From assembly GCA_905618915.1 (NCBI GenBank), contig CAJQTI010000046.1, forward strand, positions 7,441 to 71,440: a stretch of DNA of 64,000 nt. The letters run 5' to 3'. This document shows positions 5,508 through 51,330 of the stretch, piece after piece (position 1 is the stretch's first letter; every line of letters starts with the position of its first letter). Below the pieces are notes generated by a model. It searched no databases and was not told the origin of the DNA. It saw only the letters and a list, made by a program, of their open reading frames with translations. Source of the DNA: an uncultured Candidatus Pelagibacter sp. GTDB lineage: Bacteria; Pseudomonadota; Alphaproteobacteria; Pelagibacterales; Pelagibacteraceae. The translations under genes and the position numbers were made by a program.

Positions 5508-5553
5508 TTAATTAATAAGTCCGTAAATTGAATCTGTGCGAAAGCACTATCTT

Positions 5554-5589
5554 AAAAAAAATCCCCCCCAACATTGTTGGGAGAGATTT
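5554..5589 (-). terminator. Intrinsic terminator downstream of tmoX
   Basis: Minus strand AATCTCTCCCAAC-AAT-GTTGGGGGGGATT (with G-U pairs) followed by a T run. Confidence 0.8.
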
Positions 5590-5609
5590 CGATTTATAAA
5601 CTTTTATCC

Positions 5610-9005: not shown

Positions 9006-9356
9006 ATGACAGATGAAAAAAAAAGTCTTTTAGACTTCTGGGAGGATCAAGTTAAGCAATCCCACACTTCAAGTAATTATTATTTTAGAAAGTCACCTTC
9101 TCATTATCATTTGATGCTGTTAGTGATGCATGCATATAAGGTTGATGAAAAGCTTTCAGTAGAAGAATTAAAAACAAGACTTTTTAAAACTTCGAGGCCA
9201 AAAGCAGCTTTAATAATTAATGAAGCGTGTATAAAAGGATTCTTCTTTTTAGAAAAAACTTCAACTGATCAGCGAATAAAAAATATTAGGCCAAGTGAAT
9301 CTTTTATTAATGAATTTAATGAATACTTACTCAGACTAAAAAACATAAGCTATTAA
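9006..9356 (+). CDS. Winged-helix (MarR-like) putative DNA-binding protein
   Basis: 116 aa with an SRPKAALIINEA helix and a TDQRIKNI wing (DxR). Starts 5 nt after the tdm stop. Confidence 0.55.
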   Translation: MTDEKKSLLDFWEDQVKQSHTSSNYYFRKSPSHYHLMLLVMHAYKVDEKLSVEELKTRLFKTSRPKAALIINEACIKGFFFLEKTSTDQRIKNIRPSESFINEFNEYLLRLKNISY

Positions 9357-9459
9357 AGGTTTATTTAAGAGCATCACACTTAATTACTATTATATATATA
9401 TATTTTTTTGTTATAAAAATAATCCTATTAATTGTTTTTAAGAAGAATAACCTTTTCTT

Positions 9460-10788: not shown

Positions 10789-10914
10789 GCTCATACCTAT
10801 AAAATTAAATTATATAAATTTTAAATCGAAAATAATTTCTTTTACACAACTTATGCACGTAATTAACACATTGTAGTTATACAAATTATATATATTTATT
10901 ATAATCAAGATGCC

Positions 10915-10943
10915 TAGACACTAATATATTTTTCAGTTACGGT
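10915..10943 (+). promoter_or_regulatory. Candidate sigma70 promoter for the first GS-like/mgs-like operon
   Basis: TAGACA-17 nt-TACGGT, upstream of RBS AGGGAGAG. Confidence 0.4.
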
Positions 10944-10976
10944 TCGATAAATAAAAATTCATTAGAGGGAGAGATA

Positions 10977-12446
10977 ATGACTGATCTAGACAAGCACGTT
11001 GCACAACCAGGGAGAGACAAGTTAGTAAAGCAAGTTAGAGCTAAAATTAATGAACTAGGTGTTGAGTATATTTATTTTCAATTTATTTCTGTAACTGGAA
11101 GAGTTGTTGGAAAAGGTATTCCTACTGATCACTGGGAAAGAACTTGTGAAAAAGGCTTTCAATTAGTTTATGGAGCAACAGCAAACTTGTTTGTTGATCG
11201 TCATGGAGATTATATTGGTTATGGACCAGAAGCAAAAGAGCTAGTTGGTATACCTGATCCTGAAACTTTTTGTCAGCTTCCTTGGGATAAAAAAGTTGCA
11301 AGAGTATTTGTTACTTGTTTTAGAAATAGAGAAGAAAGAGATAATCCAGGCGCACATTTGACTTCGGATTGTCGTGGAAATTTAAGAATACATGCTCAAG
11401 AATTTAAAAAGAAACATGGCTACCAATTAAGAGTTGGAACTGAGCCAGAAATGATGTGGTTAACTAAGAATGAAGATGGTTCACCTACAGGTAAAGGTTA
11501 TTCTAAACCTTATTGCTATCATATAGATCAATTTGAATCTCTGAGACCAGTTTTCATGCAAGTATTTAAATACGCTAGAGCTATGGGTTTTGATATGATT
11601 CAAGGTGATCATGAGGATGCACCAGGACAATTAGAATTAAACTGGATGTACGATGATGTTTTGAGAAACGCAGATAGACTTTCTACTTACAGACAAATTT
11701 GCGCCCAAGTAGCTAGAGAGTTTAATTTGATAGCTTGTTTTATGACAAAACCTTTTATGGGTGTGTCAGCAAGTGGCTGTCATACGAACATGTCTTTATG
11801 GACAGGTGGAAAAGATAAAGTTAATAAACTATCTCATAAATCTCTACCAGGAATGGATGAGGTATTTACTTACGTTGAAGGTGGAACAAATACTTTTATG
11901 CCTGACACTAAAGATATTCAATTACCAGGTAAAATTGGTTTGAAAGCTATTGGTGGTGTGATGAAACATTTGGGAGCATTAACTGCAATTGGTTCATCTA
12001 CTGTAAACTCATACAGAAGATTGTGGGACACAGGATTTTGGGCGCCTGTTTATGCTGACTGGGGATTTCAAAATAGAACTTGTGGATTAAGAGTATCTGC
12101 ACCAGGAAGATTTGAATATCGTTCAGTTGATTCAATGCACAATCCATACTTAATGGGCTCAGGATTGTTAAAATGTTTTGATGATGGAATAACAAATAAC
12201 ATTGATCCAGGAAAGCCTGAGTCTAGAAGTATGTATGAAGCTCAAGCTGCTGGAAAAATAGTTAAAAAATTACCAATGAGTCTTGGTGAGGCTTTAAATC
12301 GTTTGGCAGAAGATGAGGTTATAAAATCAGCTATGCCAGATGAAATGTATAAAGTTTTCCATTGGTATAAAAACGATGAATGGGAAAAATTTTTAGGTGC
12401 AACAACTCAATGGGATCTAGATACTTATCTGGATTGTCTACCATAA
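10977..12446 (+). CDS. Glutamine synthetase-family gamma-glutamylamide ligase (paralog 1, GlnT-like)
   Basis: GTEPE, DHEDAPGQLE, SGCHTNMS, NRT..RV, EYRSVD. The FDGSS loop reads VYGAT and the E327 flap reads GFWAP. Confidence 0.85.
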   Translation: MTDLDKHVAQPGRDKLVKQVRAKINELGVEYIYFQFISVTGRVVGKGIPTDHWERTCEKGFQLVYGATANLFVDRHGDYIGYGPEAKELVGIPDPETFCQLPWDKKVARVFVTCFRNREERDNPGAHLTSDCRGNLRIHAQEFKKKHGYQLRVGTEPEMMWLTKNEDGSPTGKGYSKPYCYHIDQFESLRPVFMQVFKYARAMGFDMIQGDHEDAPGQLELNWMYDDVLRNADRLSTYRQICAQVAREFNLIACFMTKPFMGVSASGCHTNMSLWTGGKDKVNKLSHKSLPGMDEVFTYVEGGTNTFMPDTKDIQLPGKIGLKAIGGVMKHLGALTAIGSSTVNSYRRLWDTGFWAPVYADWGFQNRTCGLRVSAPGRFEYRSVDSMHNPYLMGSGLLKCFDDGITNNIDPGKPESRSMYEAQAAGKIVKKLPMSLGEALNRLAEDEVIKSAMPDEMYKVFHWYKNDEWEKFLGATTQWDLDTYLDCLP

Positions 12447-36797: not shown

Positions 36798-37442
36798 ATG
36801 ATAAAAAAAATTAGGGCCTCTATATCTGAAAAAATTCTATTGATCTTTTTAATGATACTAGCAATAGTTTCTTTGACTTCTTATATAATTATCAAAAATA
36901 AATGTTTATTTGTCAAAAATTATAATCCAAATGATATTCAGTTTAATAATCCGCAGAATATAGCAATACTTAATGCTCCGTGTGGAAATGTTATAATAGA
37001 ACTTTATCCAGATGTATCTCCCAATGCAGTTGAAAGGTTTAAAACATTAATAAGAACTAATAGATATGATGGTGTTGCTTTCCACAGGGTAATTGAAAAT
37101 AAATTAATTCAAGCTGGAGATTTAGAGTTTGGTAGAAGAAATAGTTTAGATTATGGAAAAATAGGAACTGGTCAATCTGGATTAGGAACTATCAATTCTG
37201 AGTTAGAAAGTGAATTTAATTTCACAAAAGGAAGTGTTGGTTTGGCTAGAACTTTTAAAAATAATACAGAAGATAGTCAATTTTTTATAATACTTGCAGA
37301 CGAGCCATTGTATGAAGGTGAATATACTCCGATTGGTAGAGTTATTTATGGAATCAAAGTCTTAAATAAAATTAAATTTTTAAATAATTCTGAGTATATT
37401 CTGAGACCTGATTTCATAAATACCTTTAAAATGCTCAATTAA
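36798..37442 (+). CDS. Membrane-anchored cyclophilin-type peptidyl-prolyl isomerase
   Basis: YDGVAFHRVI, QAGD, GLAR, SQFFI; N-terminal TM. Confidence 0.85.
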   Translation: MIKKIRASISEKILLIFLMILAIVSLTSYIIIKNKCLFVKNYNPNDIQFNNPQNIAILNAPCGNVIIELYPDVSPNAVERFKTLIRTNRYDGVAFHRVIENKLIQAGDLEFGRRNSLDYGKIGTGQSGLGTINSELESEFNFTKGSVGLARTFKNNTEDSQFFIILADEPLYEGEYTPIGRVIYGIKVLNKIKFLNNSEYILRPDFINTFKMLN

Positions 37443-37488
37443 CTCACCCAGTAACAGTTGGGTTCTATATTTTGATACTCTAAATTTC

Positions 37489-37552
37489 CTGGTCCAATTT
37501 ACCAGTTCTCTGAAACTATTTTATTGTAAACTTTAATTTTCTCAAATAAGGT
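37489..37552 (+). promoter_or_regulatory. Promoter and inverted repeat upstream of the Rieske operon
   Basis: CTGGT-CCAATTT-ACCAG (37489-37505); TTGTAA-17 nt-TAAGGT (37524-37552). Confidence 0.45.
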
Positions 37553-37590
37553 TTTGGATATAACAACGGGACTTATTTATAAAATAGCAG

Positions 37591-38727
37591 ATGCCTAAAC
37601 AGAATGACTTTACTAGAATTAGAAGAGCTAAGAATTTAAATACTATATATGGACTACCTCCAGAATCTTATACTGATGATGGTTTTTGGAAAAAAGAATG
37701 TAATACAGTTTTGTCTGATGACTGGTTGTTTGTTGGTCTAGTTCACGAACTTAAAAATCCTGGTGATATAATTCCTTTATCCATTGCAAGTAAGCCCATA
37801 TTTCTTGTTAAAGATCTAGAAAACAAAATTTCTGCTTTTCATAATGTGTGTAGTCATCGATGTTTAAAACTAGTTGACGAAAAAAAAAATGTAGGAAAAA
37901 TTATTAAATGTCCTTATCATGCATGGAGTTATAATTTAAAAGGACAATTAAAGGCTGCACCACATATAGGTGGTACAAATCAACATAAACCCAAAGGTTT
38001 TAATTTTTTAGATCATGGATTAAAGCCAATTAGAACTCACATTTGGCATGATTGGATTTTTATAAATTTTAATGGAAAGGCAAAAAAATTTGAAGAATAT
38101 GCTAAGCCACTTATAAAAAGATTTAATGATATTGATTTAACAAAATTAAATTATGTCGCAACTTTAGATTTTGGTAAAATAAATACTAATTGGAAATTTC
38201 TTATTGAAAATTTTATTGAACCTTATCATGTTCAGTTTGTTCATAAAACAACAACAAATCAACCCTTAAAGGATCATTACACATTTGTAGATGGTAAGTG
38301 TTACGGAAGTGGTGTTGATGTTGAACAAGAAGATGAAAAAAATTACAACACTTTATCTGTTACCTCAAGATATCTATCACTCTTTCCAAATTTTATAATG
38401 GGGACTTATTATCCAAATCAAGTTGGTGTGTATTTAAATATTCCTATAAGTCCAGGCATAACCTCACAAAAAAGAATAATCTACACTATAGATAATAAGG
38501 TGATGACTAAAAAAGAAATCCAAGCAACTAAGGATATTTGGTGGAGTGTTCATAAAGAAGATCATGAAATGTGTGAAAGATTACAAGAAGGTAGATCTTC
38601 TCCAGCATCAAATAATGGTGGGCTTTTATCTCCTGTATGGGAAAAAGGAGTTCAAGCATTTCAAAAACTTATAATAAATTCTATTAGAAGATCTTTTAAA
38701 ATGACAAGAAGGGTAAAAAATGTCTAA
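37591..38727 (+). CDS. Rieske non-heme iron oxygenase alpha subunit (choline monooxygenase/CntA/GbcA-like)
   Basis: CSHR..CPYHAW Rieske motif; NWK..ENFIEPYHV..VH and KED iron ligands. Confidence 0.88.
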   Translation: MPKQNDFTRIRRAKNLNTIYGLPPESYTDDGFWKKECNTVLSDDWLFVGLVHELKNPGDIIPLSIASKPIFLVKDLENKISAFHNVCSHRCLKLVDEKKNVGKIIKCPYHAWSYNLKGQLKAAPHIGGTNQHKPKGFNFLDHGLKPIRTHIWHDWIFINFNGKAKKFEEYAKPLIKRFNDIDLTKLNYVATLDFGKINTNWKFLIENFIEPYHVQFVHKTTTNQPLKDHYTFVDGKCYGSGVDVEQEDEKNYNTLSVTSRYLSLFPNFIMGTYYPNQVGVYLNIPISPGITSQKRIIYTIDNKVMTKKEIQATKDIWWSVHKEDHEMCERLQEGRSSPASNNGGLLSPVWEKGVQAFQKLIINSIRRSFKMTRRVKNV

Positions 38728-39139
38728 AGAAATTAACCTAGAGGGTTACAGGCTTGCTCATACTATGATCAGAGTTAAAAATTTAGAAGCATCTTTTGAT
38801 TTTTATTGCAAAACTTTAGGGATGAAAATTTTAAGAAAAACAGACTATCCGGAAGGAAAATTTACTAATGCTTTTATTGGTTATGGTCCTGAAACAGAAT
38901 CGCCATGTTTAGAACTAACCTGTAACTGGGACCAAAAAGATGATTATGACAAAGGTAATGGATGGGGACATGTTTGTATAGAAACACCAGATGTTTATAA
39001 AGCTTGTGATGATCTTGCCAAATTAGGCATAAATATTACTCGTAAACCAGGTCCTATGAAGCACGGAACTAGAATAATAGCCTTTTGTGAAGATCCAGAT
39101 GGGTACAAAGTCGAGTTAAATGAACCAGTAAAAGTATAA
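38720..39139 (+). CDS. gloA: Lactoylglutathione lyase (glyoxalase I)
   Basis: HTMIRV, LELTCNW, GNGWGH, PGPMKHG, DPDGYKVE. Confidence 0.85.
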   Translation: MSKEINLEGYRLAHTMIRVKNLEASFDFYCKTLGMKILRKTDYPEGKFTNAFIGYGPETESPCLELTCNWDQKDDYDKGNGWGHVCIETPDVYKACDDLAKLGINITRKPGPMKHGTRIIAFCEDPDGYKVELNEPVKV

Positions 39140-39156
39140 ATAGAAAGGGAAGATAA

Positions 39157-39552
39157 ATGTCAAAAAAACCACAATTATATAAATTTAAAGATATTGAAAA
39201 TAGACTTCATACTTTAGAGCCAGGAAAAAGTTACATTAAGCCTTTTGTGACCAGCAAGGTGAGTAACACAATGTGTGGAGGTTTAAATTTTTTAAACAAA
39301 GCTTCTATACCATGGGATTTAACTTGTGATGAAATCATCTATTGTATGACAGGAACTTTTCGCCTTACATGTAATGGTGAGTCTTATATTTGTAACCCTG
39401 GAGATGTGCTTTATATCCCAAAAGATAATCATATTGCTTATGAATGCGATGAAAAGTGTGTAATATTTTACGCTGCTTATCCTCATGATTGGAAACAACA
39501 AGCAGGTATTACATTCGTACCAGGAATAGACCCTGAAGATATGCCACAATAG
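39157..39552 (+). CDS. EutQ-like cupin
   Basis: MCGG..WDLTCDEIIY..G..PGDVLYIPK..FYAAYP.DW. Confidence 0.78.
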   Translation: MSKKPQLYKFKDIENRLHTLEPGKSYIKPFVTSKVSNTMCGGLNFLNKASIPWDLTCDEIIYCMTGTFRLTCNGESYICNPGDVLYIPKDNHIAYECDEKCVIFYAAYPHDWKQQAGITFVPGIDPEDMPQ

Positions 39553-39572
39553 TAAAGATAAAGGAGATCAAT

Positions 39573-40994
39573 ATGAGTAAGAATGAAAAAATTTATTATG
39601 AAAACTTTCAAGATGCAGTTGAACGTAATAGAAAAAAAATACCTTCTGTTCATAAAAAATTAAAAGCTGCTGGTGTAAAGTATGTTTTATCTAGCTGGAT
39701 TGATCTCCATGGCATTCCAAAATCAAAGCCTGTACCAATGACTGATTTTGAGCCATTATGCTTGGGTAAAGGACCTCAGTTTGCTGTTCATTCTATCTCT
39801 TTTGTTCCTGAGCTTACCCCTGCAGACTCCGATCAGGTCATGTTACCAGATTTAGATGCTGTTTATATTTGTCCATGGGACACTACTACTGCTATTATTT
39901 TTGCAGATCTTTTTTGGGAGGATAAGCCATATAATGTTTGTCCTAGACAAGCTTTAAAGCGTGCAATGCAAAAAGCTCAAGATGCAGGATACAAAGGAAT
40001 GGCCGGTATAGAGCCTGAGTTTATTGCAATGAAGTATGATGAAAATGGCCAACCTGTTAAAGCTATTGATAATGATCCAGTCAAAGGTCTTAGGCCAAGA
40101 CGACAAGCTTTTGGTTATGATGTAGAGCACACATTAGACTCTATGTATTTTTTAAAAGAGCTAATCGATACTTTAAATGATCTAGGTTGGATGATCCATG
40201 ATGTTGTAGCAGAAGGAGCCTATTCTCAATTTGAATTAGATTTTCATTACACCAACCTTTTGGAAATGGGAGACAGATTAGTTTTTCTTCGAATTCTTTT
40301 AAAAGAAATAGCTAAAAAAAATAATATGTTTATTACCTTTATGCCAAAACCCACTATAGGTGACTGGAGATCAGGAGCTCATATTAATTTTTCAATGGTA
40401 GATAAAAATGGAAAGAATATTTTTGATGGTGGAGATAAGTGGTCTAAAGAATCAATCTTTGCTGTTGGTGGTTTAATGAAACATGCTGAAGCAATAACTT
40501 CCATTACGTGCTCAACTGTAAATTCATACAACGGATTAGTGCCAAGAGTTGGTGGTTTTGAAGGTGGAACTGTAACTTGGGCTCCAACAAATATTACTTA
40601 TGGACACAATAATAGATCTGCACAATTTAGATTACCTCAAAATAGATATTGTATTGAAAATAGAGCAGCAGATATGACAATGAACGTTTATCTAGCACTC
40701 TCAATGACAATTTCAGCAGCAATTGAGGGAATTGAAAATAAAATACATCCAGGGAAACCAACTGACCAAGATTTATATAATATGTCAGAGGGTGAGTTTA
40801 AAAAACTTGGAATTAAAAGATTGCCAAGAAACCTACTGTCAGCGATTGAGGCTTTAAAAAATGACAAACTAACTGATGAAGTTTTGGGTCCGGTCATGAA
40901 AAAATCAATACTAGCTTATAAAAATGATGAATGGGAACGATACCATCAAGCAGTAACTGACTGGGAAGTAAAAGAGTATCTTAGACTTTATTAA
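39573..40994 (+). CDS. Glutamine synthetase-family gamma-glutamylamide ligase (paralog 3)
   Basis: GIEPEF, AEGAYSQFE, FMPKP, SGAHINFS, TWAP, NRS, ENRAAD; RBS AAGGAG. Confidence 0.85.
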   Translation: MSKNEKIYYENFQDAVERNRKKIPSVHKKLKAAGVKYVLSSWIDLHGIPKSKPVPMTDFEPLCLGKGPQFAVHSISFVPELTPADSDQVMLPDLDAVYICPWDTTTAIIFADLFWEDKPYNVCPRQALKRAMQKAQDAGYKGMAGIEPEFIAMKYDENGQPVKAIDNDPVKGLRPRRQAFGYDVEHTLDSMYFLKELIDTLNDLGWMIHDVVAEGAYSQFELDFHYTNLLEMGDRLVFLRILLKEIAKKNNMFITFMPKPTIGDWRSGAHINFSMVDKNGKNIFDGGDKWSKESIFAVGGLMKHAEAITSITCSTVNSYNGLVPRVGGFEGGTVTWAPTNITYGHNNRSAQFRLPQNRYCIENRAADMTMNVYLALSMTISAAIEGIENKIHPGKPTDQDLYNMSEGEFKKLGIKRLPRNLLSAIEALKNDKLTDEVLGPVMKKSILAYKNDEWERYHQAVTDWEVKEYLRLY

Positions 40995-42004
40995 TGAAAG
41001 ATTATCAGGAGTTTAACTTAGGAAATATTAAACTCTTATCTGGTAAAATCTTAAAGTCTGCCCAGTTAATTTATAAAACTTACGGTAAACTTAACAAAGA
41101 TCATTCAAATGTAATTGTACTTCCAACATTTTATACAGGCACTCATATCCGCAATGAAGGTTTTATTGGAAAAAATAGGGCAATAAATCCGAATAAATTT
41201 TTTATTATTTCAATAAATATGTTTGGCAATGGTTTCTCAACATCACCGAGTAATGCTATTAAATTACAACGTGGTTCTCAATTTCCTGAAATAACACTTT
41301 GGGATAATATTTATTGTCAGCATAAATTAATAAACGAAAAACTTAACATAAAAAAAATTGCCTTAGTAACTGGCTGGTCTATGGCTGGGTGCCAGTCATA
41401 TCAATGGGCGGCACAGTATCCTGATATGGTCAAAGCAATTCTACCTTTTTGCGCTTCATCAAAAACATCAATACATAATCATGTTTTTTTAGAAGGTGTG
41501 AAGGCAGCACTAATAACAGATAAAAGTTGGAATAATGGAAATTATAAAAAACAACCAGTTGCAGGTTTAAAAAGCTTTGGACGTGTATATGCTGGTTGGG
41601 CCTTCTCTCAAGATTTTTATAGAAAAAAACTTTATAAAAAATTTGGTTTTGAGAGTGTTGAGGATTTGCTTAAAGATTGGGCTAATGATCATGCAAAAAA
41701 TTGGGATGCAAATGATCTTTTAAGCAAACTAAAGACTTGGCAGCTAAACAATATAAGCAGTGGTCCACTCTATAAGGGCAATTATATTAAAGCTTTAAGG
41801 TCAATTAGAGCAAAGACAATTTTGATGCCATGTAATCAGGATTTATATTTTAGGACAGAAGATAATATGTATGAAGAGAAATTTATTAAAAGAGTATCTT
41901 TAAAACCTATTGACTCACCTTATGGGCATTGTGCTGCAAATCCAGGTAATGATAAGAATTTTCAAAGAAAATTAGATCAAAATATTGCTGAACTATTAAC
42001 TTAG
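40994..42004 (+). CDS. MetX-fold alpha/beta hydrolase or acyltransferase
   Basis: YKTYGKLN, GWSMAG nucleophile, DLYF, YGHCA; TAATG-coupled to the GS-like gene. Confidence 0.8.
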   Translation: MKDYQEFNLGNIKLLSGKILKSAQLIYKTYGKLNKDHSNVIVLPTFYTGTHIRNEGFIGKNRAINPNKFFIISINMFGNGFSTSPSNAIKLQRGSQFPEITLWDNIYCQHKLINEKLNIKKIALVTGWSMAGCQSYQWAAQYPDMVKAILPFCASSKTSIHNHVFLEGVKAALITDKSWNNGNYKKQPVAGLKSFGRVYAGWAFSQDFYRKKLYKKFGFESVEDLLKDWANDHAKNWDANDLLSKLKTWQLNNISSGPLYKGNYIKALRSIRAKTILMPCNQDLYFRTEDNMYEEKFIKRVSLKPIDSPYGHCAANPGNDKNFQRKLDQNIAELLT

Positions 42005-42104: not shown

Positions 42105-43310
42105 ATGAAAAATCAACTTAAGAAAGAGCTTAAGAAGATAAATATACACAGTCAGAGTTTATTTGAAAGCCCATTAAAAATTCTTAAAAAAATAAATTTA
42201 GATAAATTTAAAAAAATCACATCTTTTTCTTTAACTAAAAAATATAAAGATTTCAAAAAAAATATTAAACAAAAGGAACTAAATAAAATCAAGTTATTAA
42301 AAGAAAAAAAAATTAGAGAATTAAAAAAAGAAAAATTAGAACAAGAAAAACAAAAGATAGAAGAGATAAAGTTAATTAAACAAAATGAATTAAATATATT
42401 AAAGGAAGAAAAACAAAAGATAGAGAAACAAGAAAAACTAAAAATAAAAATAATAAAACAACAACAACAAATTGAAAGACAGAAAATTAAACTTGAGACA
42501 CAAAGAATAAAAGCTGAAGAGCAAAAATTAAGAGACGAAGACGAAGAAAAAGAACGTCAGGATGATTTAAAATTAAAAGAAGAAAAATTAAGATTAGAAT
42601 TTTTTGAAAAACAAAGAGTGAGGCAAGAGCAACAAAGAGCAAAAATAGAAAGAGATAAATTAATAACCCTTGAGAGACAGAGTGCTCGTGAAGCTAAACA
42701 AAAAATAAATGATGAAGTAGAAAGATTAAAAAATATTGAGATTGATAAACAAAAAAAAGATGAACAAAGATTAAATGAAGAAGAACATAAATTAAATTAT
42801 CAAAAAAAAAAACTTGAAGAAATAGAACAAAATATTAAAAAAATTGATACTGAGAGATTAAGGGAAAAAGAAATACAAATATTAAAAGAAGCAGACGAAT
42901 TGAGGAACAAAGAAAAGGAATTTAGATTAAAAGAACAGCAAGAAATAGAAGAGCTTAAGGAATTAAAACTAAAAGACTTTAATCATAGAAAAAGAGAAGA
43001 AGAGTTACAATTAAAAGAAGAAGAGATAAAATTAGAAAATTTAAGAGAACAAAAAATAATTGAAGCAGGAATTCTTGAAGAAAGAAGAATCAAAGATGAA
43101 GAACAAAAAATAAAAGAATGGGAAAAAAAATTTGATAAGGACCAAATAAAAAAAGAAGAAGAATTAATAAAAAAGTTTAATGACCAATTAATTAGGGAAA
43201 AAGAAGAAAGTCAAAAGATAATAGAATTTAAAAAAGAAGTAGTAATAGAAGAAAAGAATGAAGAAATATTAGATGATGAGGTAAGAAAAGAAGAAGATGA
43301 AAGATATTAG
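42105..43310 (+). CDS. Lys/Glu/Gln-rich coiled-coil protein of unknown function
   Basis: 401-aa uninterrupted ORF of charged heptad-like sequence; no TM or recognisable domain. Confidence 0.7.
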   Translation: MKNQLKKELKKINIHSQSLFESPLKILKKINLDKFKKITSFSLTKKYKDFKKNIKQKELNKIKLLKEKKIRELKKEKLEQEKQKIEEIKLIKQNELNILKEEKQKIEKQEKLKIKIIKQQQQIERQKIKLETQRIKAEEQKLRDEDEEKERQDDLKLKEEKLRLEFFEKQRVRQEQQRAKIERDKLITLERQSAREAKQKINDEVERLKNIEIDKQKKDEQRLNEEEHKLNYQKKKLEEIEQNIKKIDTERLREKEIQILKEADELRNKEKEFRLKEQQEIEELKELKLKDFNHRKREEELQLKEEEIKLENLREQKIIEAGILEERRIKDEEQKIKEWEKKFDKDQIKKEEELIKKFNDQLIREKEESQKIIEFKKEVVIEEKNEEILDDEVRKEEDERY

Positions 43311-45529
43311 TTAATCAAAGGTTTCCCCGTTCCTAGTGTGTATTTAATTCGATCTTGAGTTTCTTTTGTTTCAATTAGTCTCATGAAAGCATCTAATTCT
43401 AATTTAAACAAATCATCTTCTGATAAAGTTTTATCATGGGTTGTATCTCCTCCACTTAAGACATGGGCTAATTCCTTTGCAACTGTAACACCATGCTCAC
43501 GAATTATTTTTTCATTGTAAAGTTTTTCTATAATTATATTCATTTCTACCAAAACTTCTTTTCCTGGTAGCTTGAATTCTGTTTCTAGTGGAGTTTTAAA
43601 TTCTTTATTATCATTTAAGATTTCTTTTGAAACTTCTAATAAACTGTTTCTATTCATTATTTTTTTATCTTCAGGTTTTAAATATTTTAATGGTTCTGCC
43701 TCAACTGGTGATGTTGCAGTTTTTCCATAACCAATAATATCAAAAACTTTAAGGGGTGCGTAATGAGGATCTTTTTTAGCTTCATCTGTATCAAGCCATC
43801 TAGCCAACATTTCCTTGCATCCCCCACCAGCTGGTATTAATCCAACTATTGTTTCAACTAATCCAACTACAATGTTTGTGTGTGAGGCTACAAAATTACT
43901 TTGGACCATAACCTCAAATCCGCCACCAAGTGTTAATCCTGAAGGTGCAGAAACTACTGGATGATTAGAATACTTAAGATGTTTACAGGTTTCTTGAAAA
44001 TATCTAATAAATTTTTCTATAGATTTAAAGTCATTCTTATTTGCAAAATCCATCGTATAACTCAAATTTACTCCAGCAGAGAATTGCATACTTTCATTTA
44101 TTATAATCAACGGTTTATCTGTAGCTTTTTTTAAAGCATCCATTGAATCATAATCTAATGCATTTGCTTTAGTGGTAAACTCGACAATATTATAATCATT
44201 AAATCTATATATCTGAGCTGAGCTATTTCCATCTACACTTAATGCTTTCTTTTTAGCTTTTCCAAATGTTTCAATGTTAGTATATTTCTGCCTAGGTCCA
44301 TAAAAATTTTGATTTCTGTTTTGAGATAAATTTTCTAAAAAAGTATTTCCTTTAATGTCATCTATCTTTCCAAAAAAAGTTTCTACTCCGATTTCCTCCA
44401 ACATTTCAAATGGACCTTTAGTCCAGTTAAAACCTAACCTCATTGCTTCATCAATATCATTAAAATCTTTTGTAATTGATGGGACTAAAGAAGAGGCATA
44501 TTTAATAATCTTAGAAATAACAGACCAAGCATACTCACCATATTTATCTTCTCTTGAAATTAATTTTTTGAGATCTACTTTATCTGATTTAATATTAATC
44601 TTTTTACTTACTGAATACTCTCCTGTTTCAAGATTAATTGCTTCCATAACCTTTACATCACCTGTTTTGTTAACTCTGTAAAACCCACCCTTGCCTTTTC
44701 GACCAGTATATCCAGTTTCAATTAATTTTTTTACTAGAGGAATTTCTTTTGCAATTATTTGAAAAGGGTCATTTTCTTGCAATTCTTTAATAAAACTTTT
44801 TAAAACATCGGCCATTAAATCTATGCCAATTAAATCATAAAGACCAAACACACCTGTTTTTGGTATGCCCATTGGTCTTCCAAAAATTGCATCTGCTTCT
44901 TCTATACTAAGTTTCATTTTAAAAGCCTCCGTCATTGCAACTTGCATTGCAAAAACACCTATTCTATTTCCTAAAAAACCTGGCGTATCATTACAAATAA
45001 TTGCTCCTTTTCCAAGTTCTGTTTCACAAAAATTTTTTAAAGCGTTTATTTTTTCTAAATCATTATTTTCATTTTTAACTATCTCTAATAACCCCATGTA
45101 TCTAACTGGATTAAAAAAGTGTGTAATACAAAAATCTTTTTTTTCTTCTTCTGATAAATATTCAGATAAGATTTTAATAGGTATAGATGATGTGTTTGAT
45201 GAAACTATTGCACCCTTTTTTCTTTCCTTAAATATTTTTTTATAGATTTCATGTTTGATATCTATTCTCTCAACAACAGCTTCTACTACCCAGTCAGCTT
45301 CTTTTACTTCATCAAAATTATCTAAAATATTTCCTACTTTAATGTTGTTTATTTTTGATTTATCTAACAAAAGTGGGGGTCTTGATTTGTGAATTTTATC
45401 TCGTGCTTGCTCACTTATTTCAGTTTTTAAATCTAGCAAGGTTACTGGAATATTTGCATTACATAGATGCGCAGCAATACCACTACCCATAGTGCCTGAA
45501 CCAATAACTACTACTTTTTTAATTTCCAT
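43307..45529 (-). CDS. 3-hydroxyacyl-CoA dehydrogenase/enoyl-CoA hydratase (FadN-like)
   Basis: GSGTMGSGIA, EAVVE, SNTSS, HFFNPVRY, FSAGVNL, LGGGFE, GLVE. Confidence 0.9.
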   Translation of the reverse strand: MEIKKVVVIGSGTMGSGIAAHLCNANIPVTLLDLKTEISEQARDKIHKSRPPLLLDKSKINNIKVGNILDNFDEVKEADWVVEAVVERIDIKHEIYKKIFKERKKGAIVSSNTSSIPIKILSEYLSEEEKKDFCITHFFNPVRYMGLLEIVKNENNDLEKINALKNFCETELGKGAIICNDTPGFLGNRIGVFAMQVAMTEAFKMKLSIEEADAIFGRPMGIPKTGVFGLYDLIGIDLMADVLKSFIKELQENDPFQIIAKEIPLVKKLIETGYTGRKGKGGFYRVNKTGDVKVMEAINLETGEYSVSKKINIKSDKVDLKKLISREDKYGEYAWSVISKIIKYASSLVPSITKDFNDIDEAMRLGFNWTKGPFEMLEEIGVETFFGKIDDIKGNTFLENLSQNRNQNFYGPRQKYTNIETFGKAKKKALSVDGNSSAQIYRFNDYNIVEFTTKANALDYDSMDALKKATDKPLIIINESMQFSAGVNLSYTMDFANKNDFKSIEKFIRYFQETCKHLKYSNHPVVSAPSGLTLGGGFEVMVQSNFVASHTNIVVGLVETIVGLIPAGGGCKEMLARWLDTDEAKKDPHYAPLKVFDIIGYGKTATSPVEAEPLKYLKPEDKKIMNRNSLLEVSKEILNDNKEFKTPLETEFKLPGKEVLVEMNIIIEKLYNEKIIREHGVTVAKELAHVLSGGDTTHDKTLSEDDLFKLELDAFMRLIETKETQDRIKYTLGTGKPLIN

Positions 45530-45584: not shown

Positions 45585-46439
45585 TTACCTATTAATTCCT
45601 CTTAGTCTTTCAGATCTTCGTCTTAAAAGTTCTGCACTAACTAGAATTAAAGTAGACATTATGATTAAGCATGTTGCTACGGCCATGATTGTTGGACTTA
45701 ATTGTTCCCTTAGCCCAACCCACATTTGAATTGGAATAGTAGTAGTTTCAAGTCCTGCTAGAAATAATACAACTACAACTTCATCAAATGAAGTTACAAA
45801 AGCAAATAGTGCTCCAGAAATAACACCTGGTAAAATTAATGGTAAAGTTATTTTCATAAAAGTATTAACTGGATTACTACCTAAACTAGCAGCAGCCCTT
45901 GTAACACTATGATCAAAACCAGTTAATGTTGCAGTAACTGTAATAACAACAAACGGTGTTCCTAAAATAATATGTGCTAAAACTATCCCTGTATGTGTTG
46001 CAGCCAAACCTACTTTTGCCATAAAGAAAAATATTGCTGTGCCTGAAATAATTAATGGAACAATCATTGGTGAAATTAATAAAGCCATGAATGCTGCTTT
46101 GTAAGGCATGTGTCTACTACTTAAACCTAATGCTGCAACTGTTCCAAGAATTGTTGAGCCAATAGTTGCAAAGAAAGCAATGATAATGCTATTTTTTGCT
46201 GCTAATCCCCATGGATTTTTAGTACCGTAAATCATATCTTCATACCATCTTAAAGAAAAACCTTCTGGATCAAGTGCTAACATTTTTGCTGAAAAGTGAA
46301 TGTATTGCTCAGCATTAAATGAAAGTGGTAGAATTATAAAGAGCGGAGCAATTAAAAAGAAAAACACTAATCCACAAATAGTTAAATATGTGTAGTGCCA
46401 TATTCTATAATTCCATGATGTGTAAGTTGGTAATGACAT
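45585..46439 (-). CDS. potC: PotC-like ABC permease
   Basis: SLRWY, AAASLGS, SFDEVVV. Confidence 0.8.
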   Translation of the reverse strand: MSLPTYTSWNYRIWHYTYLTICGLVFFFLIAPLFIILPLSFNAEQYIHFSAKMLALDPEGFSLRWYEDMIYGTKNPWGLAAKNSIIIAFFATIGSTILGTVAALGLSSRHMPYKAAFMALLISPMIVPLIISGTAIFFFMAKVGLAATHTGIVLAHIILGTPFVVITVTATLTGFDHSVTRAAASLGSNPVNTFMKITLPLILPGVISGALFAFVTSFDEVVVVLFLAGLETTTIPIQMWVGLREQLSPTIMAVATCLIIMSTLILVSAELLRRRSERLRGINR

Positions 46440-46442
46440 AAT

Positions 46443-47690
46443 TTATCCTAGTTTAATATTATCTATTCCTACTAATTTATTATAAATCCAGTAAATGGTT
46501 AATACACCAACCAACAGCATTGTGCCTAATGCAGCAGCAAATGACCAATCTAAAGAACTTTTCATATGATAAGCAATTGTATTACTAATTAAAGATCCAC
46601 TAGCACCACCTACTAATGCAGGTGTAATGTAATAACCTATTGCTAAAATAAAAACCAACAATGACCCAGCACCAATACCTGGAACTGTTAATGGAAAGTA
46701 AATTTTTCTAAATGCTACAAATGGTGTTCCACCTAAAGATTTTCCAGCTCTCATTAAGCTTGGAGATATTGTTTTCATTACACTGTAAAGTGGTAAAACC
46801 ATAAATGGTAGTAAGATTTGCGTCATCGCAACAAAAGTTCCAATTACATTGTACATTAGTTCTGGCCTATTATCATTGGCTGCAAGCCCAAGCATTACAA
46901 TTAAATCATTAATTGGGCCTTGCTGTTGAAGTAAAACCATCCAACTTGAAGTTCTAACTAACAGTGATGTCCAGAATGGAAGTAGTACACATATCATCAG
47001 TAAATTACTATATTTCATGGGTAATGTAGCTAGTAAGTATGAAATTGGATAAGCAAGTACGAAACAGAATATAGTTACCCAAAAAGCAACTTTGAGAGTT
47101 CTTAACCATAGTATCTTATGAATTCTTCTGTCCTCTGGTTGCTGAACTATATCTCCATTTTGGTCAAATTTTAAATCCACACCTTTTAGATATTTAGCAT
47201 AAGTCCAATTTGGTGCAGCATTCTTTAAAGCAACTAAATATTCAGGTTGACCCCACCTTTTGTGAACATTTATAAATTGTTCTTTATAGTTTCCATCTTC
47301 GAATTTTCCAAGTTTTCTAACTGTTTTTTTTATTAAGCTACTAAATCCACCTTTTTCATAATTTAATCTTGCTATGATCTTGCCATAAGTTTTAGTCTTT
47401 TTTAAATATGATAAATCTTCATAAAGAGCTGCATAAACTGGCTCTTCTGGAAGGTTTTTGCCATCCCATTTTTCAATCGCTGTAAAGGTATTTGGTAACA
47501 TTTTAGTGATCTTACGATCATCAATACTTCTAAATAACATGTCACCTATTGGAAAAACATATGTAATTATAAGAAACAGAAATAATGGTCCCACAAGAAA
47601 TAATGCTTTTAATTTATTTTTTCTCTCAGCTTTTCTTAAACTGACCTCTAAAGGTAACCCATCTGATGATAATATTTGTTCTGTGCTCAT
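46443..47690 (-). CDS. potB: PotB-like ABC permease
   Basis: LPFWTSLLVR, LPFMVLPLY, GYYITPALVGG. Confidence 0.8.
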   Translation of the reverse strand: MSTEQILSSDGLPLEVSLRKAERKNKLKALFLVGPLFLFLIITYVFPIGDMLFRSIDDRKITKMLPNTFTAIEKWDGKNLPEEPVYAALYEDLSYLKKTKTYGKIIARLNYEKGGFSSLIKKTVRKLGKFEDGNYKEQFINVHKRWGQPEYLVALKNAAPNWTYAKYLKGVDLKFDQNGDIVQQPEDRRIHKILWLRTLKVAFWVTIFCFVLAYPISYLLATLPMKYSNLLMICVLLPFWTSLLVRTSSWMVLLQQQGPINDLIVMLGLAANDNRPELMYNVIGTFVAMTQILLPFMVLPLYSVMKTISPSLMRAGKSLGGTPFVAFRKIYFPLTVPGIGAGSLLVFILAIGYYITPALVGGASGSLISNTIAYHMKSSLDWSFAAALGTMLLVGVLTIYWIYNKLVGIDNIKLG

Positions 47691-47704
47691 ATTTTAAAAT
47701 TCTC

Positions 47705-47737
47705 AAAAAAAAAGGGCGGCTATCATTTAACCGCCCT
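47705..47737 (-). terminator. Intrinsic terminator/attenuator between the SBP gene and the permeases
   Basis: Minus strand AGGGCGGTTA-AATGA-TAGCCGCCCT followed by a T run. Confidence 0.85.
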
Positions 47738-47775
47738 AGTATTTTATAATAAAAACTTAATCTATAATACTAAAA

Positions 47776-48897
47776 TTATAGTCCAGCTTTCATTGCTTCC
47801 CATTTCTCGTTGATTTCATCTTGGTTATCTGCCCAGAAATCAGGATTCATTAGGATATATTTTTTAGTGTTAACAGGTGCTGTAGGCATGTGTTGTACCA
47901 TGCTTGTCTTACCATCTTTATACCATGGCTCTCCAGCATCTATAATAGCAATTGAAGACTTTCTCCAAGGAGCGTAAGCAATATACTTAGCACTTCCAGC
48001 TAAACCTTCAGTACTTGTCATTTCTCTAAGTACTTTCAAAGCTTCACCATTAGCATCGTTAGGTCCACCTTTAACCATTGCAAAATACTCATAGTCAAGA
48101 ATTTGTCCATCCCATACTTGTACAAGAGGAGTTCCTTCCATTTGCGCATTAAAGAATCTACCGTTCCAACCAGTTGCCATTACCACTTCACCATTGGCAA
48201 GTAATTCAGGCGGTTGAGCTCCAGCATTCCAGAATACACATCCACCATTTGGATCAGTACAAAGGTCTGTAATCATTTTCATTGCTCTGTCTACTCCACC
48301 AGCAGCTTCAAGTTTTCTGTAAGTTAAGTCAGAACCTTTACCAGGGTTTACACCGTCTGCAGTGATAGCAATCTCTAAGTTAGACATTGCACCTTTGTAA
48401 ATTGCTCTTTTTCCAGGAAACTTAGCAGTGTTAAAAAAGTCTTTTAATGTAGACGGTTTTTTTGCACCGATAGTTGCATCATTGTAAGCATAGTTCCAAG
48501 AGTACAAGATGTTTCCAACTGCACATTTAGAAGGCATGCCAGTAAAGAAGTCTTGACTTGCTGGAGTTCCATCTGGAGCAGGTGAAAAATCTTTGTCAAA
48601 GTCGAATTCAACAAAAATACCTTCATCACATCCAATGATAGTGTCTTTTGCATATACATCGATAATATCCCATGTAATTGCACCAGCTTCTTTTTGAGCT
48701 TTAATCTCTGATAATCCACCTGTGTAATCTACCCAGTTTACAGCAATACCTAATTTAGCAGCTGTAGGATCACCATACCCTAATTTTTGACTTTCCGTAT
48801 AAGCACCACCCCAAGAAGCTACAGTAACTGCAAAAGCTGAAGTTGTGATAGAAAGTACAAAAGATAGAGCAAGTAATAGTTTACTTAATTTTTTCAT
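47776..48897 (-). CDS. potD: PotD-family substrate-binding protein (substrate uncertain)
   Basis: Signal peptide, SWGGAY, WDIIDV, GWNGRF; RBS AGGAG. Confidence 0.78.
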   Translation of the reverse strand: MKKLSKLLLALSFVLSITTSAFAVTVASWGGAYTESQKLGYGDPTAAKLGIAVNWVDYTGGLSEIKAQKEAGAITWDIIDVYAKDTIIGCDEGIFVEFDFDKDFSPAPDGTPASQDFFTGMPSKCAVGNILYSWNYAYNDATIGAKKPSTLKDFFNTAKFPGKRAIYKGAMSNLEIAITADGVNPGKGSDLTYRKLEAAGGVDRAMKMITDLCTDPNGGCVFWNAGAQPPELLANGEVVMATGWNGRFFNAQMEGTPLVQVWDGQILDYEYFAMVKGGPNDANGEALKVLREMTSTEGLAGSAKYIAYAPWRKSSIAIIDAGEPWYKDGKTSMVQHMPTAPVNTKKYILMNPDFWADNQDEINEKWEAMKAGL

Positions 48898-49015
48898 TTT
48901 CTCTCCTATTTAACGTTAACGTTTTATTTAAGTGACACTAAAACAATATAGGCACGTTTAGTCAACAGCCAATTATGTCTAATTTGCCTTTATTTTATAG
49001 GGAATTTTATAATGC

Positions 49016-50104
49016 TTATTTTGGATCTAGAGCTCTACAGTCAATACTATTCCAGCCGATATTTAGCTCATTACCCTTTTTAAGATCTAGTCTTGCAGTA
49101 CTGTTTGGTACTTTAAGAATAAAATCTTTGTTTCCAAGTAGATCAACTCTAAGTCTCGTGTGATCACCGTGGTAAATTATTTCTTCTATTTTACCCTTAT
49201 GATTATTATCCATTTTATCTTTAGGATCTATAATTGCTCTTTCAGGTCTTAGTGAAATTTTAGTTTTCTCACCTTTTGCCTTTACAGCAACTGGATTTGC
49301 TAAAATTTCTATACCATTATCTAATTTAACCTTACATTTATCACCTGAAATATCTGCAACCTGCCCTAAAAATTTATTATTCTCTCCAATAAACTCAGCA
49401 ACAAAAGAATTAACAGGTTGTTCGTATAATTCATCTGGGCTTGATAACTGCTGAACTTTACCATCATTGAAAACTGCAATTCTATTTGACATTGTTAACG
49501 CTTCAGTTTGATCGTGTGTTACATAAACAACTGTTACACCAATACTTTCATGAATATGTTTAATTTCATATTGCATGCTTTCTCTTAAATTTTTATCTAA
49601 TGCACCAAGTGGCTCATCCATAAGTACTACCTGTGGATCAAAAACTAATGATCTTGCAACAGCAACACGTTGTTGTTGTCCACCAGATAATTGCATCGGC
49701 ATTCTTGCTTCAAAACCATGAAGTGAGACCATTGATAAAGCTTTATCAATTTTTTTATCTGCTTCATCTTTTGGAATTTTTCTAACTCTTAATGGAAAAG
49801 CTAAATTTTCATAAACAGTCATATGAGGGAACAAAGCGTAGTTTTGGAATACCATTCCAATTCCTCTTTTGTGAGGTGGAATGTTTGAAATTACTTTACC
49901 ATCTAAATAAATTTCTCCATGAGTTGGGGTTTCAAAACCAGCCAGCATCATTAAACAAGTTGTTTTACCAGAACCAGAGGGTCCCAACATAGTTACAAAC
50001 TCACCTTCTTCAATATCAAGATTTAATCCTTTAACGACTAATATTTTGCCATCGTAGCTTTTGTCTACATTGTCAAATTTTACGAATTCTTTATTTTTTG
50101 CCAT
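49016..50104 (-). CDS. potA: PotA-like ABC ATPase
   Basis: GPSGSGKTT, LSGGQQQRV, MDEPLGALD, C-terminal TOBE domain. Confidence 0.85.
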   Translation of the reverse strand: MAKNKEFVKFDNVDKSYDGKILVVKGLNLDIEEGEFVTMLGPSGSGKTTCLMMLAGFETPTHGEIYLDGKVISNIPPHKRGIGMVFQNYALFPHMTVYENLAFPLRVRKIPKDEADKKIDKALSMVSLHGFEARMPMQLSGGQQQRVAVARSLVFDPQVVLMDEPLGALDKNLRESMQYEIKHIHESIGVTVVYVTHDQTEALTMSNRIAVFNDGKVQQLSSPDELYEQPVNSFVAEFIGENNKFLGQVADISGDKCKVKLDNGIEILANPVAVKAKGEKTKISLRPERAIIDPKDKMDNNHKGKIEEIIYHGDHTRLRVDLLGNKDFILKVPNSTARLDLKKGNELNIGWNSIDCRALDPK

Positions 50105-50163: not shown

Positions 50164-51330
50164 CTACTTAATGTGAAGATCTTTTGAAAAATTACAAAAT
50201 AACTCACACCCTTTGTCGGTTATTCGTATTGCTTCTGATGCTTCAACTCCCCATTCTCCAAATTGCATTACAGCAATCATATGAAAAGTAACATTTGGTT
50301 CTAATATAGTCATATCACCTTTAGATATATTAAGGGTATGTTCGCCCCAATCTGGTGGATAACCAATTCCTATTGAATACCCAGTTCTAGAGGTTTTTTC
50401 TATTCCATATTTATCTAGAATTTTCCAAAAAGCTTGCGCAACATCATCTGCTGTTTGCCCTGGTTTTGCTGCATCTATTCCAGCTTGAAGAGCCTCATTT
50501 GTTTTATTCATAGTATCAATTTTCACTCGATCAGGCTTTCCAAGTAAAACTGTTCTTGCCATTGGACAATGATACCTTTGGTATACCCCTGAAAGTTCAA
50601 TAATTGTAGCTTCACCCTCCACAAACTTATCCTGTGTTGCTGTTAAATGTGATGCTGAAGTACCCTTTCCTGTTGGGACTAGTGTTGCAATACTTGAATA
50701 TTCTCCACCAAATTCTGGGGTTCCATAAAATAATGCTTTTTGAATTTCACCCACCGCATCACACTGCCTGACGCCAGGATTTATCACATCAATTGCTGTC
50801 TGCATTCCTTTTTGAGAAATTATTGCTGCAGATTTCATAAGTTCTATCTCCGCATTAGATTTAACAACACGAGCCCAATTAACCAATCTTTCAGAATCTT
50901 TTAACTTAGCATTTGGCAACCCTTGTTTCATTTTTTCATAACAATAAGCTGTAAAATAATGACTATCCATTTCTAAACCTATTGTAAGTTTATCCCATTT
51001 TCTCTCTTTTATAATTTCTACTAAATTATCATAAGGATGAACTGGCCAAGTATGAATATATTTCTCATCATAAACTAAAATATTTTCATTTTTTAAATAA
51101 GTTTTTATATAAGCTCCACCTGAGTCTTGCTTTCTAACCCAACATAATGGCTCATCAGCATTTACATGAACAATTACAGCTTGAGCATAATAAAACGACC
51201 AAGCATCATAGCCAGTTAAATAGTTCATATTTGCTGTATCACTAGAGATTAATAACTCTATGCCTTTCTCTTGCATTGAACTTTGAACTTTTTTTAACCT
51301 TGCTTTGTATTCTTCTTTGCTAAAATTCAT
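50164..51330 (-). CDS. doeA: M24-family ectoine hydrolase-like protein (DoeA/EutD)
   Basis: YLTGYDAWSFY, LVNWAR.VKS, RYHCPMART, GYSIGIGYPPDWGEHT. Confidence 0.75.
   Translation of the reverse strand: MNFSKEEYKARLKKVQSSMQEKGIELLISSDTANMNYLTGYDAWSFYYAQAVIVHVNADEPLCWVRKQDSGGAYIKTYLKNENILVYDEKYIHTWPVHPYDNLVEIIKERKWDKLTIGLEMDSHYFTAYCYEKMKQGLPNAKLKDSERLVNWARVVKSNAEIELMKSAAIISQKGMQTAIDVINPGVRQCDAVGEIQKALFYGTPEFGGEYSSIATLVPTGKGTSASHLTATQDKFVEGEATIIELSGVYQRYHCPMARTVLLGKPDRVKIDTMNKTNEALQAGIDAAKPGQTADDVAQAFWKILDKYGIEKTSRTGYSIGIGYPPDWGEHTLNISKGDMTILEPNVTFHMIAVMQFGEWGVEASEAIRITDKGCELFCNFSKDLHIK

Follow-up and report, generated by a model that had tools for sequence, protein, structure and literature searches.

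Glutamine synthetase (GS)-like ligases are paired with a hydrolase in the Puu, Ipu and aniline dioxygenase pathways, and an oxidative module is placed in between. Among the Rieske non-haem iron oxygenases, the enzymes of clade Va cleave the C-N bond of quaternary amines; the bridging Glu of CntA is E205, and Y203 of the same enzyme is the pi-cation residue which defines clade Va and is Asn in clade Vb (PMC7948474). A Cys-x-x-Cys pair near the iron site is present in some group V Rieske enzymes, CntA included (PMC10952381). In Arctic SAR11, a quaternary-amine island with carnitine dehydrogenase, BKACE, gamma-butyrobetaine dioxygenase and a glycine-betaine ATP-binding cassette (ABC) transporter has been described (PMC12421898). 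Here, five genes from a 64,000-nucleotide stretch of DNA (the window; GC about 30%) of a 60%-complete SAR11/Pelagibacter metagenome-assembled genome (MAG) were analysed. The window belongs to contig G000:C46, and the genes encode a Rieske oxygenase, a glyoxalase I (GloA), a EutQ-like small cupin, a GS-fold ligase and a MetX-fold alpha/beta hydrolase. This cassette is a real conserved unit of two separable modules, designated below as module A (Rieske, GloA, cupin) and module C (ligase, hydrolase). No published description of the cassette was found in a full-text literature search, and the opinion of the preliminary description of this DNA that no described pathway has this gene set was upheld by the same search.

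In marine metagenomes, the cassette was detected in more than 480 matching stretches, and the number of protein clusters at 90% identity exceeds 100. The gene order was compared on 80 marine SAR11 contigs with Rieske identities of 73-99%, and each gene was counted only where the contig reached it. The order Rieske-GloA-cupin-ligase-hydrolase was unbroken: GloA was present in 67/67, the cupin in 58/58, the ligase in 47/47 and the hydrolase in 37/37 cases. Two of the 25 genus representatives carry the cassette. The cassette of the congener G001 matches that of the window in its five genes, their order and the insertion site. In G013, which is a complete genome, and in G024, the peptidyl-prolyl isomerase (PPIase) and FadB genes that flank the cassette abut directly, indicating a clean presence/absence insertion. 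In G010, the fadB-PPIase site (L012, G010:C6:4500-17800) holds an open reading frame (ORF) of 2101 aa and two further genes, and no cassette. The fadB-PPIase position is a hypervariable insertion site. A second SAR11 insertion site was found between BKACE and carnitine-dehydrogenase-like genes (L173:1652-14862 and L175:10010-13139), where the dehydrogenase gene (313 aa) starts 2 nt after the hydrolase gene.

A divergent pair of genes, for a LigXa-like Rieske oxygenase and a D-2-hydroxyacid dehydrogenase, precedes the cassette in 55 of the 70 contigs reaching upstream, and it is present also in G001 and in a single-amplified genome (SAG) of SUP05. The window copy is the minority form without this pair. 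In L117, the Rieske protein of which is 89% identical to that of the window, a deletion scar was located between the PPIase and Rieske genes (5482-6199). Within the scar, a 118-aa N-terminal LigXa-like scrap adjoins a duplicate of the last 127 aa of FadB, and the scrap indicates that a deletion from the seven-gene form is the likely origin of the five-gene form of the window.

Outside SAR11, the conservation of the cassette was determined by a scan of one genome per species, resulting in 7 loci with a Rieske protein at least 47% identical and 73 loci with less similar relatives. All seven loci contained the ligase (64-91% identical) and GloA, the hydrolase was present wherever the contig reached it, and the cupin was found in most of them. 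The seven loci originate from SAR11, an alphaproteobacterial SAG, SUP05, Rhodospirillales and two MAGs, and their gene order is rearranged, in some cases with divergent genes. The ligase, GloA and hydrolase were found in none of the 73 loci with a Rieske protein at most 36% identical (one exception: a 2.4-kb fragment, 44%), and no further occurrence was detected in a phylum-level genome sample. The neighbourhood search proposed in the preliminary description thus confirmed the co-conservation, with an invariant order in SAR11 and with the genes together but rearranged in other lineages. In six non-SAR11 lineages the cluster is accompanied by the gene of an orthologous Lrp/AsnC regulator (45-67% identical), and in one more lineage this gene adjoins that of the ligase. 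Importer genes are enclosed in the clusters of L019 (EhuB-like polar-amino-acid ABC system) and L098 (NitT/TauT system). In L019, an alphaproteobacterial MAG locus, the genes of the EhuB-like binding protein, two permeases and an ATPase (9281-12373) are situated between the Rieske and GloA genes.

The two modules were also found separately. An even sample of 400 alphaproteobacterial genomes yielded ligase orthologues (56-76% identical) in eight. Immediately downstream of the ligase gene, the hydrolase gene was found in six cases; in a further one the two are separated by about 3 kb, with an ABC transporter between them. No hydrolase gene was seen in L103 or in L097, the latter being cut at the contig end. 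The Rieske-GloA unit is missing from the ligase loci L099, L100, L101, L102 and L104. L099, L101 and L104 have no oxygenase module, and L100 and L102 have the LigXa-like/dehydrogenase module only. The reverse situation was determined in G182, a 98%-complete alphaproteobacterium. Its locus (L193:8445-13273) comprises the genes of an enoyl-CoA hydratase, an intact Rieske protein (51% identical), GloA, the cupin and an FNR/Fer2 reductase of 358 aa (L193:11326-12402), the last directly after the cupin gene, and a LysR regulator is encoded on the opposite strand. No GS-like match was found in G182 even at E 1e-40. The oxygenase unit can thus stand by itself and has no need of the ligase, and the generalisation drawn from nine lineages that Rieske-GloA never occurs without the ligase was overturned. 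The preliminary description had proposed a glutamylated amine as the Rieske substrate. As the halves occur independently of each other, such a role of the ligase is unsupported.

The features of the window are presented in Table 1. The five ORFs were found exactly as in the preliminary description, tightly linked and with junctions of -8, +17, +20 and -1 nt.

Table 1. Features of the cassette and of its surroundings in the window.
Feature	Position	Strand	Properties
Rieske non-haem iron oxygenase alpha subunit	37591-38727	+	378 aa; PF00355 + PF00848
Glyoxalase I (lactoylglutathione lyase, GloA)	38720-39139	+	139 aa; TIGR00068 above cut-off; start overlaps Rieske stop by 8 nt
EutQ-like small cupin	39157-39552	+	131 aa; PF06249, 61 bits
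GS-fold ATP-dependent ligase	39573-40994	+	473 aa; PF00120 (Gln-synt_C), 290 bits
MetX-fold alpha/beta hydrolase, family PRK07581	40994-42004	+	336 aa; start and ligase stop share one base
Terminator-like hairpin and T-run after PPIase gene, upstream cassette boundary	37446-37463	+	hairpin with T-run
Pot-type ABC importer, adjoins DoeA-like gene	45585-50104	-	binding protein 47776-48897, no NCBIfam match
DoeA-like M24 hydrolase	50164-51330	-	TIGR02993, 439 bits (cut-off 613)

Judged by its sequence, the Rieske protein is group-V-like, of the CntA/choline monooxygenase (CMO) type, and consists of the alpha subunit only. No Rieske beta subunit or reductase was found among the five genes or in the flanks. 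The ligands of the Rieske cluster (C87, H89, C107, H110) and of the iron (H213, H218, D324) show no variation in alignment A1 and have aligned counterparts in CntA. In the motif ENFIEPYHVQFVH, which is identical in the G182 protein, E210 is the aligned counterpart of CntA E205, the bridging Glu, and ENFIEPYH of the window protein corresponds to DNYMECYH of CntA. The E-x-Y-H bridging-Glu pattern noticed in the preliminary description was hereby verified. The position of CntA Y203 is occupied by F208, also in the SAR11 orthologues, P0121, P0122 and G182. With the GbcA model the score was 125 bits (cut-off 670), covering the N-terminal half only, and with CntA (6y8j) it was 81 bits. The nearest representatives of 50%-identity clusters outside the protein's own clade are at most 44% identical over the full length.

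Other Rieske genes were observed in the course of the comparison. A second paralogue of G000 (G000:C34:10451-11599), 35% identical, is shared by the majority of the genomes in the genus. Relatives of this type occur in Halomonas, Colwellia, Psychrobacter, Pseudomonas and Marinobacterium, where they adjoin the gene of a BADH-like aldehyde dehydrogenase, and most of these loci have a EutQ-like cupin within a few kb. In G133 (contig C6; L194:1575-2852), a second Rieske copy, 50% identical, is followed only by a 43-aa match to the C-terminus of GloA; this copy may be a decaying duplicate.

GloA of the cassette reached 147 bits with TIGR00068 (cut-off 120) and 143 bits with E. coli GlxI (1f9z), and its metal ligands H14, E64, H84 and E132 are kept in the alignment to solved enzymes. 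G000 and G001 hold no other match above the TIGR00068 cut-off. In G013 and G024, which do not carry the cassette, the only match is a glyoxalase I paralogue with 97-99 bits. The GloA gene directly follows the Rieske gene in all lineages but one. With a dedicated true glyoxalase I, a 2-oxoaldehyde is a reasonable product to assume, and in this respect the glyoxal-type product of the preliminary description remained in place. Canonical GloB (about 282-286 bits, cut-off 201) was detected in every SAR11 genome checked, i.e. G000, G001 and G013; a replacement of glyoxalase II by the cassette hydrolase was rejected on this ground. The cupin matched the EutQ structures 4axo and 2pyt with about 44 bits and does not have the usual His metal motif. 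Its score with the EutQ equivalog NF012001 was 54 bits, below the cut-off of 193, and the match covered the C-terminal cupin domain only; the assignment as EutQ acetate kinase was rejected due to the missed cut-off. The cupin accompanies Rieske-GloA in most loci, that of G182 included, and was not detected in L018 and L019.

The scores of the ligase were below the cut-offs of TIGR03105 (353 vs 470 bits), GGputSyn (190 vs 650) and GlnA TIGR00653 (300 vs 429), and the best solved relative was GmaS 9qur with 225 bits. The metal and ATP residues are kept in alignment A2: EPEF, the glutamates of AEG and FEL, the His of SGAH, NNRS..R, and ENR. The FDGSSI motif of GlnA is replaced by FAVHSI, without Asp50, and this replacement is invariant in seven orthologues; GmaS reads FAGFAT. 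The NSYKRL motif of GlnA is changed to NSYNGL, by which the canonical glutamate-anchoring Arg is replaced with Gly. All the orthologues, which are 56-91% identical in other genomes, have NSYNG, except one with NSYKG, compared to NSYKR in GlnA and NSYRR in the GmaS of the window. An invariant Arg is located in the DWRSG loop of the ligase orthologues. With the loss of the canonical glutamate-binding Arg, gamma-glutamylation by the ligase is no more than putative. No canonical GlnA above the cut-off was found in G000, where the cassette ligase is the best match to TIGR00653. G013 has a true GlnA (651 bits), and G000 is an incomplete MAG, so the housekeeping glnA of G000 was probably not assembled.

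The hydrolase scored 424 bits with NF005757/PRK07581 (cut-off 332) and only 152 bits with the true MetX model TIGR01392 (cut-off 500). The MetX fold suggested in the preliminary description was thus retained, whereas a homoserine O-acyltransferase function was rejected; a better MetX candidate of the same genome is located at G000:C26:1942-2952. Full-length matches of about 200 bits were obtained with the structures 5d6o and 5e4y, and the triad of Ser (GWSMAG), Asp (QDLYF) and His (YGH) was aligned. The PDB titles of 5d6o/5d7b and 5e4y/5efz read 'homoserine O-acetyltransferase'. We take these entries to be the esterases CgHle of C. glutamicum and MekB of P. veronii, respectively; the assignment and the esterase activity are reportedly from Tolzer et al. 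2016. MekB is a broad-specificity esterase (PMC2975365). The protein atlas names for the hydrolase are limited to the generic 'alpha/beta hydrolase'.

Clues to the substrate were obtained from the genomic surroundings. On 22 of the 80 SAR11 contigs, the cassette is found in a carnitine-type island with genes for a TauD-family protein, a thioesterase, a class II aldolase, BKACE, a carnitine-dehydrogenase-like protein and an OpuAC-ABC transporter; at the L173/L175 site a short-chain dehydrogenase/reductase (SDR) and an FrhB-like protein are encoded as well. On most of the island contigs reaching both flanks, the cassette has the BKACE gene on one side and the carnitine-dehydrogenase-like gene on the other. 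In L016, a gene similar to TmpA/gamma-butyrobetaine dioxygenase is situated two genes upstream of the Rieske gene. The residues E210 and F208, the carnitine-type island and the TmpA-like gene of L016 point to a quaternary or otherwise cationic amine as the predicted substrate. A strict link between the cassette and carnitine genes was rejected on the basis of G004 and G024 (see below) and of G000, a 60%-complete MAG, in which carnitine-dehydrogenase-like and BKACE genes were not found.

From the gene content we infer a mobile catabolic cassette of SAR11 in which the Rieske enzyme would directly oxidise a cationic amine, giving an amine and a 2-oxoaldehyde that is removed by GloA, and in which the ligase-esterase pair would have a linked product as its target. 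This explanation is favoured, though tentatively. The gene content, the intact catalytic residues, the co-conservation and the separability of the modules are observations, and the chemistry of the individual steps, the flow between the modules and the substrate are deduced from them. Module A would be a CntAB-like two-component monooxygenase; in SAR11 its reductase is absent from the cassette and was not found. The carbon next to the nitrogen of a small cationic amine would be hydroxylated, and the substrate would have, or acquire, a carbonyl beside the hydroxylated carbon. The candidate substrates are dehydrocarnitine, trimethylaminoacetone, betaine aldehyde and a primary alpha-aminoketone. 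The hemiaminal would collapse to a smaller amine and a 2-oxoaldehyde, and the latter could be converted to a D-2-hydroxy acid by the cassette GloA and the housekeeping glyoxalase II. In module C, the ligase would spend ATP on an amide bond and the PRK07581 hydrolase would cleave an ester or amide. The most likely target of module C, to be captured or processed, would be the nitrogenous product or else a related solute from that nutrient family. A more defined version is considered rather unlikely. According to it, module A splits alpha-keto quaternary amines (3-dehydrocarnitine, trimethylaminoacetone, betaine aldehyde) to trimethylamine and a 2-oxoaldehyde, the glyoxalase is committed to catabolism, with D-malate, D-lactate or glycolate as the product, and the GS-fold ligase with a relocated Arg uses a non-glutamate acid.

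Several observations weigh against the favoured explanation. The Cys-x-x-Cys pair near the iron site is absent from the window protein (E-P-Y-H-V compared to E-C-Y-H-C; P211 and V214), and the identity to any characterised Rieske enzyme is less than about 30%. The FNR-type reductase domain PF00175 was not found in the SAR11 genomes searched (G000, G001, G004 and G013, one of which is complete). Carnitine-dehydrogenase-like and BKACE genes are present in G004 and G024, both of which lack the cassette, and the window copy is located at another site. A trimethylamine leaving group, as in the known clade Va enzymes, could not be used by a GS-type ligase, and the link between the modules would then be unexplained. 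By analogy, the ligase and hydrolase may also bracket a pathway in the way of PuuA/PuuD and IpuC/IpuF, and this would fit an initial ligase step in the lineages with both modules.

Such an initial step is the core of an alternative, essentially that of the preliminary description, in which the ligase gamma-glutamylates a primary amine (aminoacetone, an amino-alcohol, 4-amino-3-hydroxybutyrate (GABOB) or 5-aminolevulinate), the Rieske enzyme oxidises the conjugate to a glutamine or glutamyl product and a 2-oxoaldehyde, and the hydrolase removes the tag in the role of PuuD, IpuF or AtdA2. This course of reactions is regarded as somewhat unlikely. It stays alive because a ligase bracketed by a hydrolase, with the oxidative module between, is the known logic of gamma-glutamylation pathways. 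The ligase and hydrolase are in this case the invariant core, and the oxidative modules vary, being Rieske-GloA-cupin or the LigXa-like Rieske oxygenase with the 2-hydroxyacid dehydrogenase. A PuuD-like class-I amidotransferase is encoded upstream of the ligase in L104, and the cassette ligase, like GmaS, lacks the Asp50 of true GS. On the other hand, G182 has an intact Rieske-GloA-cupin-reductase set without a GS-like gene, the glutamate-anchoring Arg is lost (NSYNGL), all the cut-offs of the gamma-glutamyl-ligase equivalogs are missed, and there is no Rieske beta subunit, unlike in the aniline dioxygenases. F208 and E210 would suit a cation-binding pocket rather than a neutral amide (PMC7948474).

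It is also conceivable, but less probable, that the modules are functionally unrelated, serve different nutrients and were brought together by recombination at the hypervariable sites of streamlined genomes. Each half occurs alone, the cassette is inserted at two chromosomal sites in SAR11, the G010 site is filled by unrelated genes, including that of the 2101-aa protein, and L117 carries the deletion scar. In contrast, both halves occur jointly in 9 of the 10 examined lineages with a Rieske orthologue, which belong to several orders and show varied gene orders and divergent arrangements, a distribution that repeated chance would not give. The gene identities to the window copies fall broadly in parallel across the lineages, and the orthologous Lrp/AsnC regulator is associated with the joint cluster in six non-SAR11 lineages and with the ligase in the seventh. 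Least probable among the explanations is a Rieske protein acting as a usual monooxygenase of choline, glycine betaine or carnitine, with the other four genes incidental, despite the group V motifs and the JGI name 'choline monooxygenase' given to the orthologues. The strict adjacency of a glyoxalase I is not known as a feature of the CntAB, GbcAB or CMO systems. The low scores with GbcA and CntA and the distance to the nearest cluster representatives outside the clade argue against it as well. The preliminary description had named a plain choline/betaine monooxygenase independent of the ligase as the opposing case; the independence was demonstrated by G182, but the plain choline/betaine assignment was contradicted by the GbcA score.

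The boundaries and expression of the cassette were also studied. The terminator-like hairpin on the PPIase side makes a separate transcription unit plausible. The cassette's own candidate promoter, proposed in the preliminary description, could not be confirmed: no plus-strand sigma-70 site was found in 37464-37590, and the matches over the whole region, 27 compared to 29.9 expected, were at the chance level, the scan being uninformative in AT-rich DNA. Contigs of RNA libraries from four studies extend over the cassette and across its junctions. As evidence of expression they are weak because DNA can occur in such libraries, and neither transcription nor a single transcript is provable from them. 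Record 2 of X15 and record 9 of X16 (37302-37991) span the upstream hairpin, so read-through or DNA carry-over is possible.

An ORF of 401 aa (42105-43310, plus strand) is located between the cassette and fadB. It is a Lys/Glu-rich low-complexity sequence with a GC content of 23% and an AT skew of 0.47, and it had no Pfam or NCBIfam match. Similar ORFs occupy the same place on the SAR11 contigs L121, L124, L129, L130, L138 and L172. In L117 and L122, similar ORFs are found upstream of the Rieske gene, and none was seen in G001 and L014. The depth of RNA-library contigs was very high over 42300-43400, which is probably a low-complexity (repeat) artefact. Further downstream in the window, the region with the DoeA-like gene and the Pot-type importer is syntenic in G001 and in genomes without the cassette. 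A link to ectoine was not adopted, as the EhuB-like protein of L019 (TIGR02995, 168 bits, cut-off 190.9) and the DoeA-like gene both miss their cut-offs and as the synteny of the latter region extends to cassette-less genomes.

SAR11 is the most abundant bacterial group of the surface ocean, with small genomes and few genes of unknown role, and the cassette is shared by SUP05 and further marine proteobacteria. Should module A act on an osmolyte-type compound and release a methylated amine together with a 2-oxoaldehyde, it would be a new step in marine nitrogen and methylamine cycling. It would also be the first case of a glyoxalase I as the dedicated catabolic partner of an oxygenase, and a physiological role would be provided for a GS-fold ligase with a rebuilt acid site. 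In the case of alpha-keto quaternary amines, a new route of marine trimethylamine production in SAR11 and SUP05 and an undescribed aerobic C-N cleaving system would be implied. Due to the small soluble proteins and the natural reductase partner in G182, the question is directly testable.

In comparison with the described systems, the Arctic quaternary-amine island (PMC12421898) is similar to the island which holds or adjoins the cassette on the 22 contigs, whereas the window copy is found elsewhere, between the PPIase and FadB genes. The text of that study has no match for 'Rieske' or 'glutamine synthetase', and so the cassette is not described there. The window Rieske protein shares with CntA/CntB (YeaW/YeaX), clade Va, choline monooxygenase and OxyBAC the alpha-only composition, the length of about 375 aa, the bridging Glu, an aromatic residue at the Y203 position and the 2-His-1-Asp site, and the FNR/Fer2 reductase adjacent in G182 resembles CntB. 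It differs from CntA in the score of only about 81 bits, in the missing Cys-x-x-Cys pair, in the glyoxalase I and then, usually, the cupin that follow, and in the reductase, none being found in the SAR11 cassette or genomes. The aniline-dioxygenase-type systems have a beta subunit, a class-I amidotransferase-like protein and a reductase, all of which are absent from the five genes and flanks. The GmaS/N-methylglutamate, PuuA-D, IpuC/IpuF and AtdA1-A5/TdnQTA1A2B systems likewise have an Asp50-less GS-fold ligase near a hydrolase and an oxygenase. In contrast to them, the cassette hydrolase has the alpha/beta fold and is not a class-I amidotransferase, the glutamate-binding Arg of the ligase is changed to Gly, and the oxygenase occurs alone in G182. 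The cassette hydrolase is comparable with the CgHle/MekB-type structures in the full-length similarity, the triad and the NF005757 match, and differs by its fixed GS-fold ligase neighbour. GloA of the cassette has the same metal ligands as the Ni/Co-type enzyme of E. coli (1f9z), but it is a fixed partner of an oxygenase instead of a stand-alone housekeeping gene.

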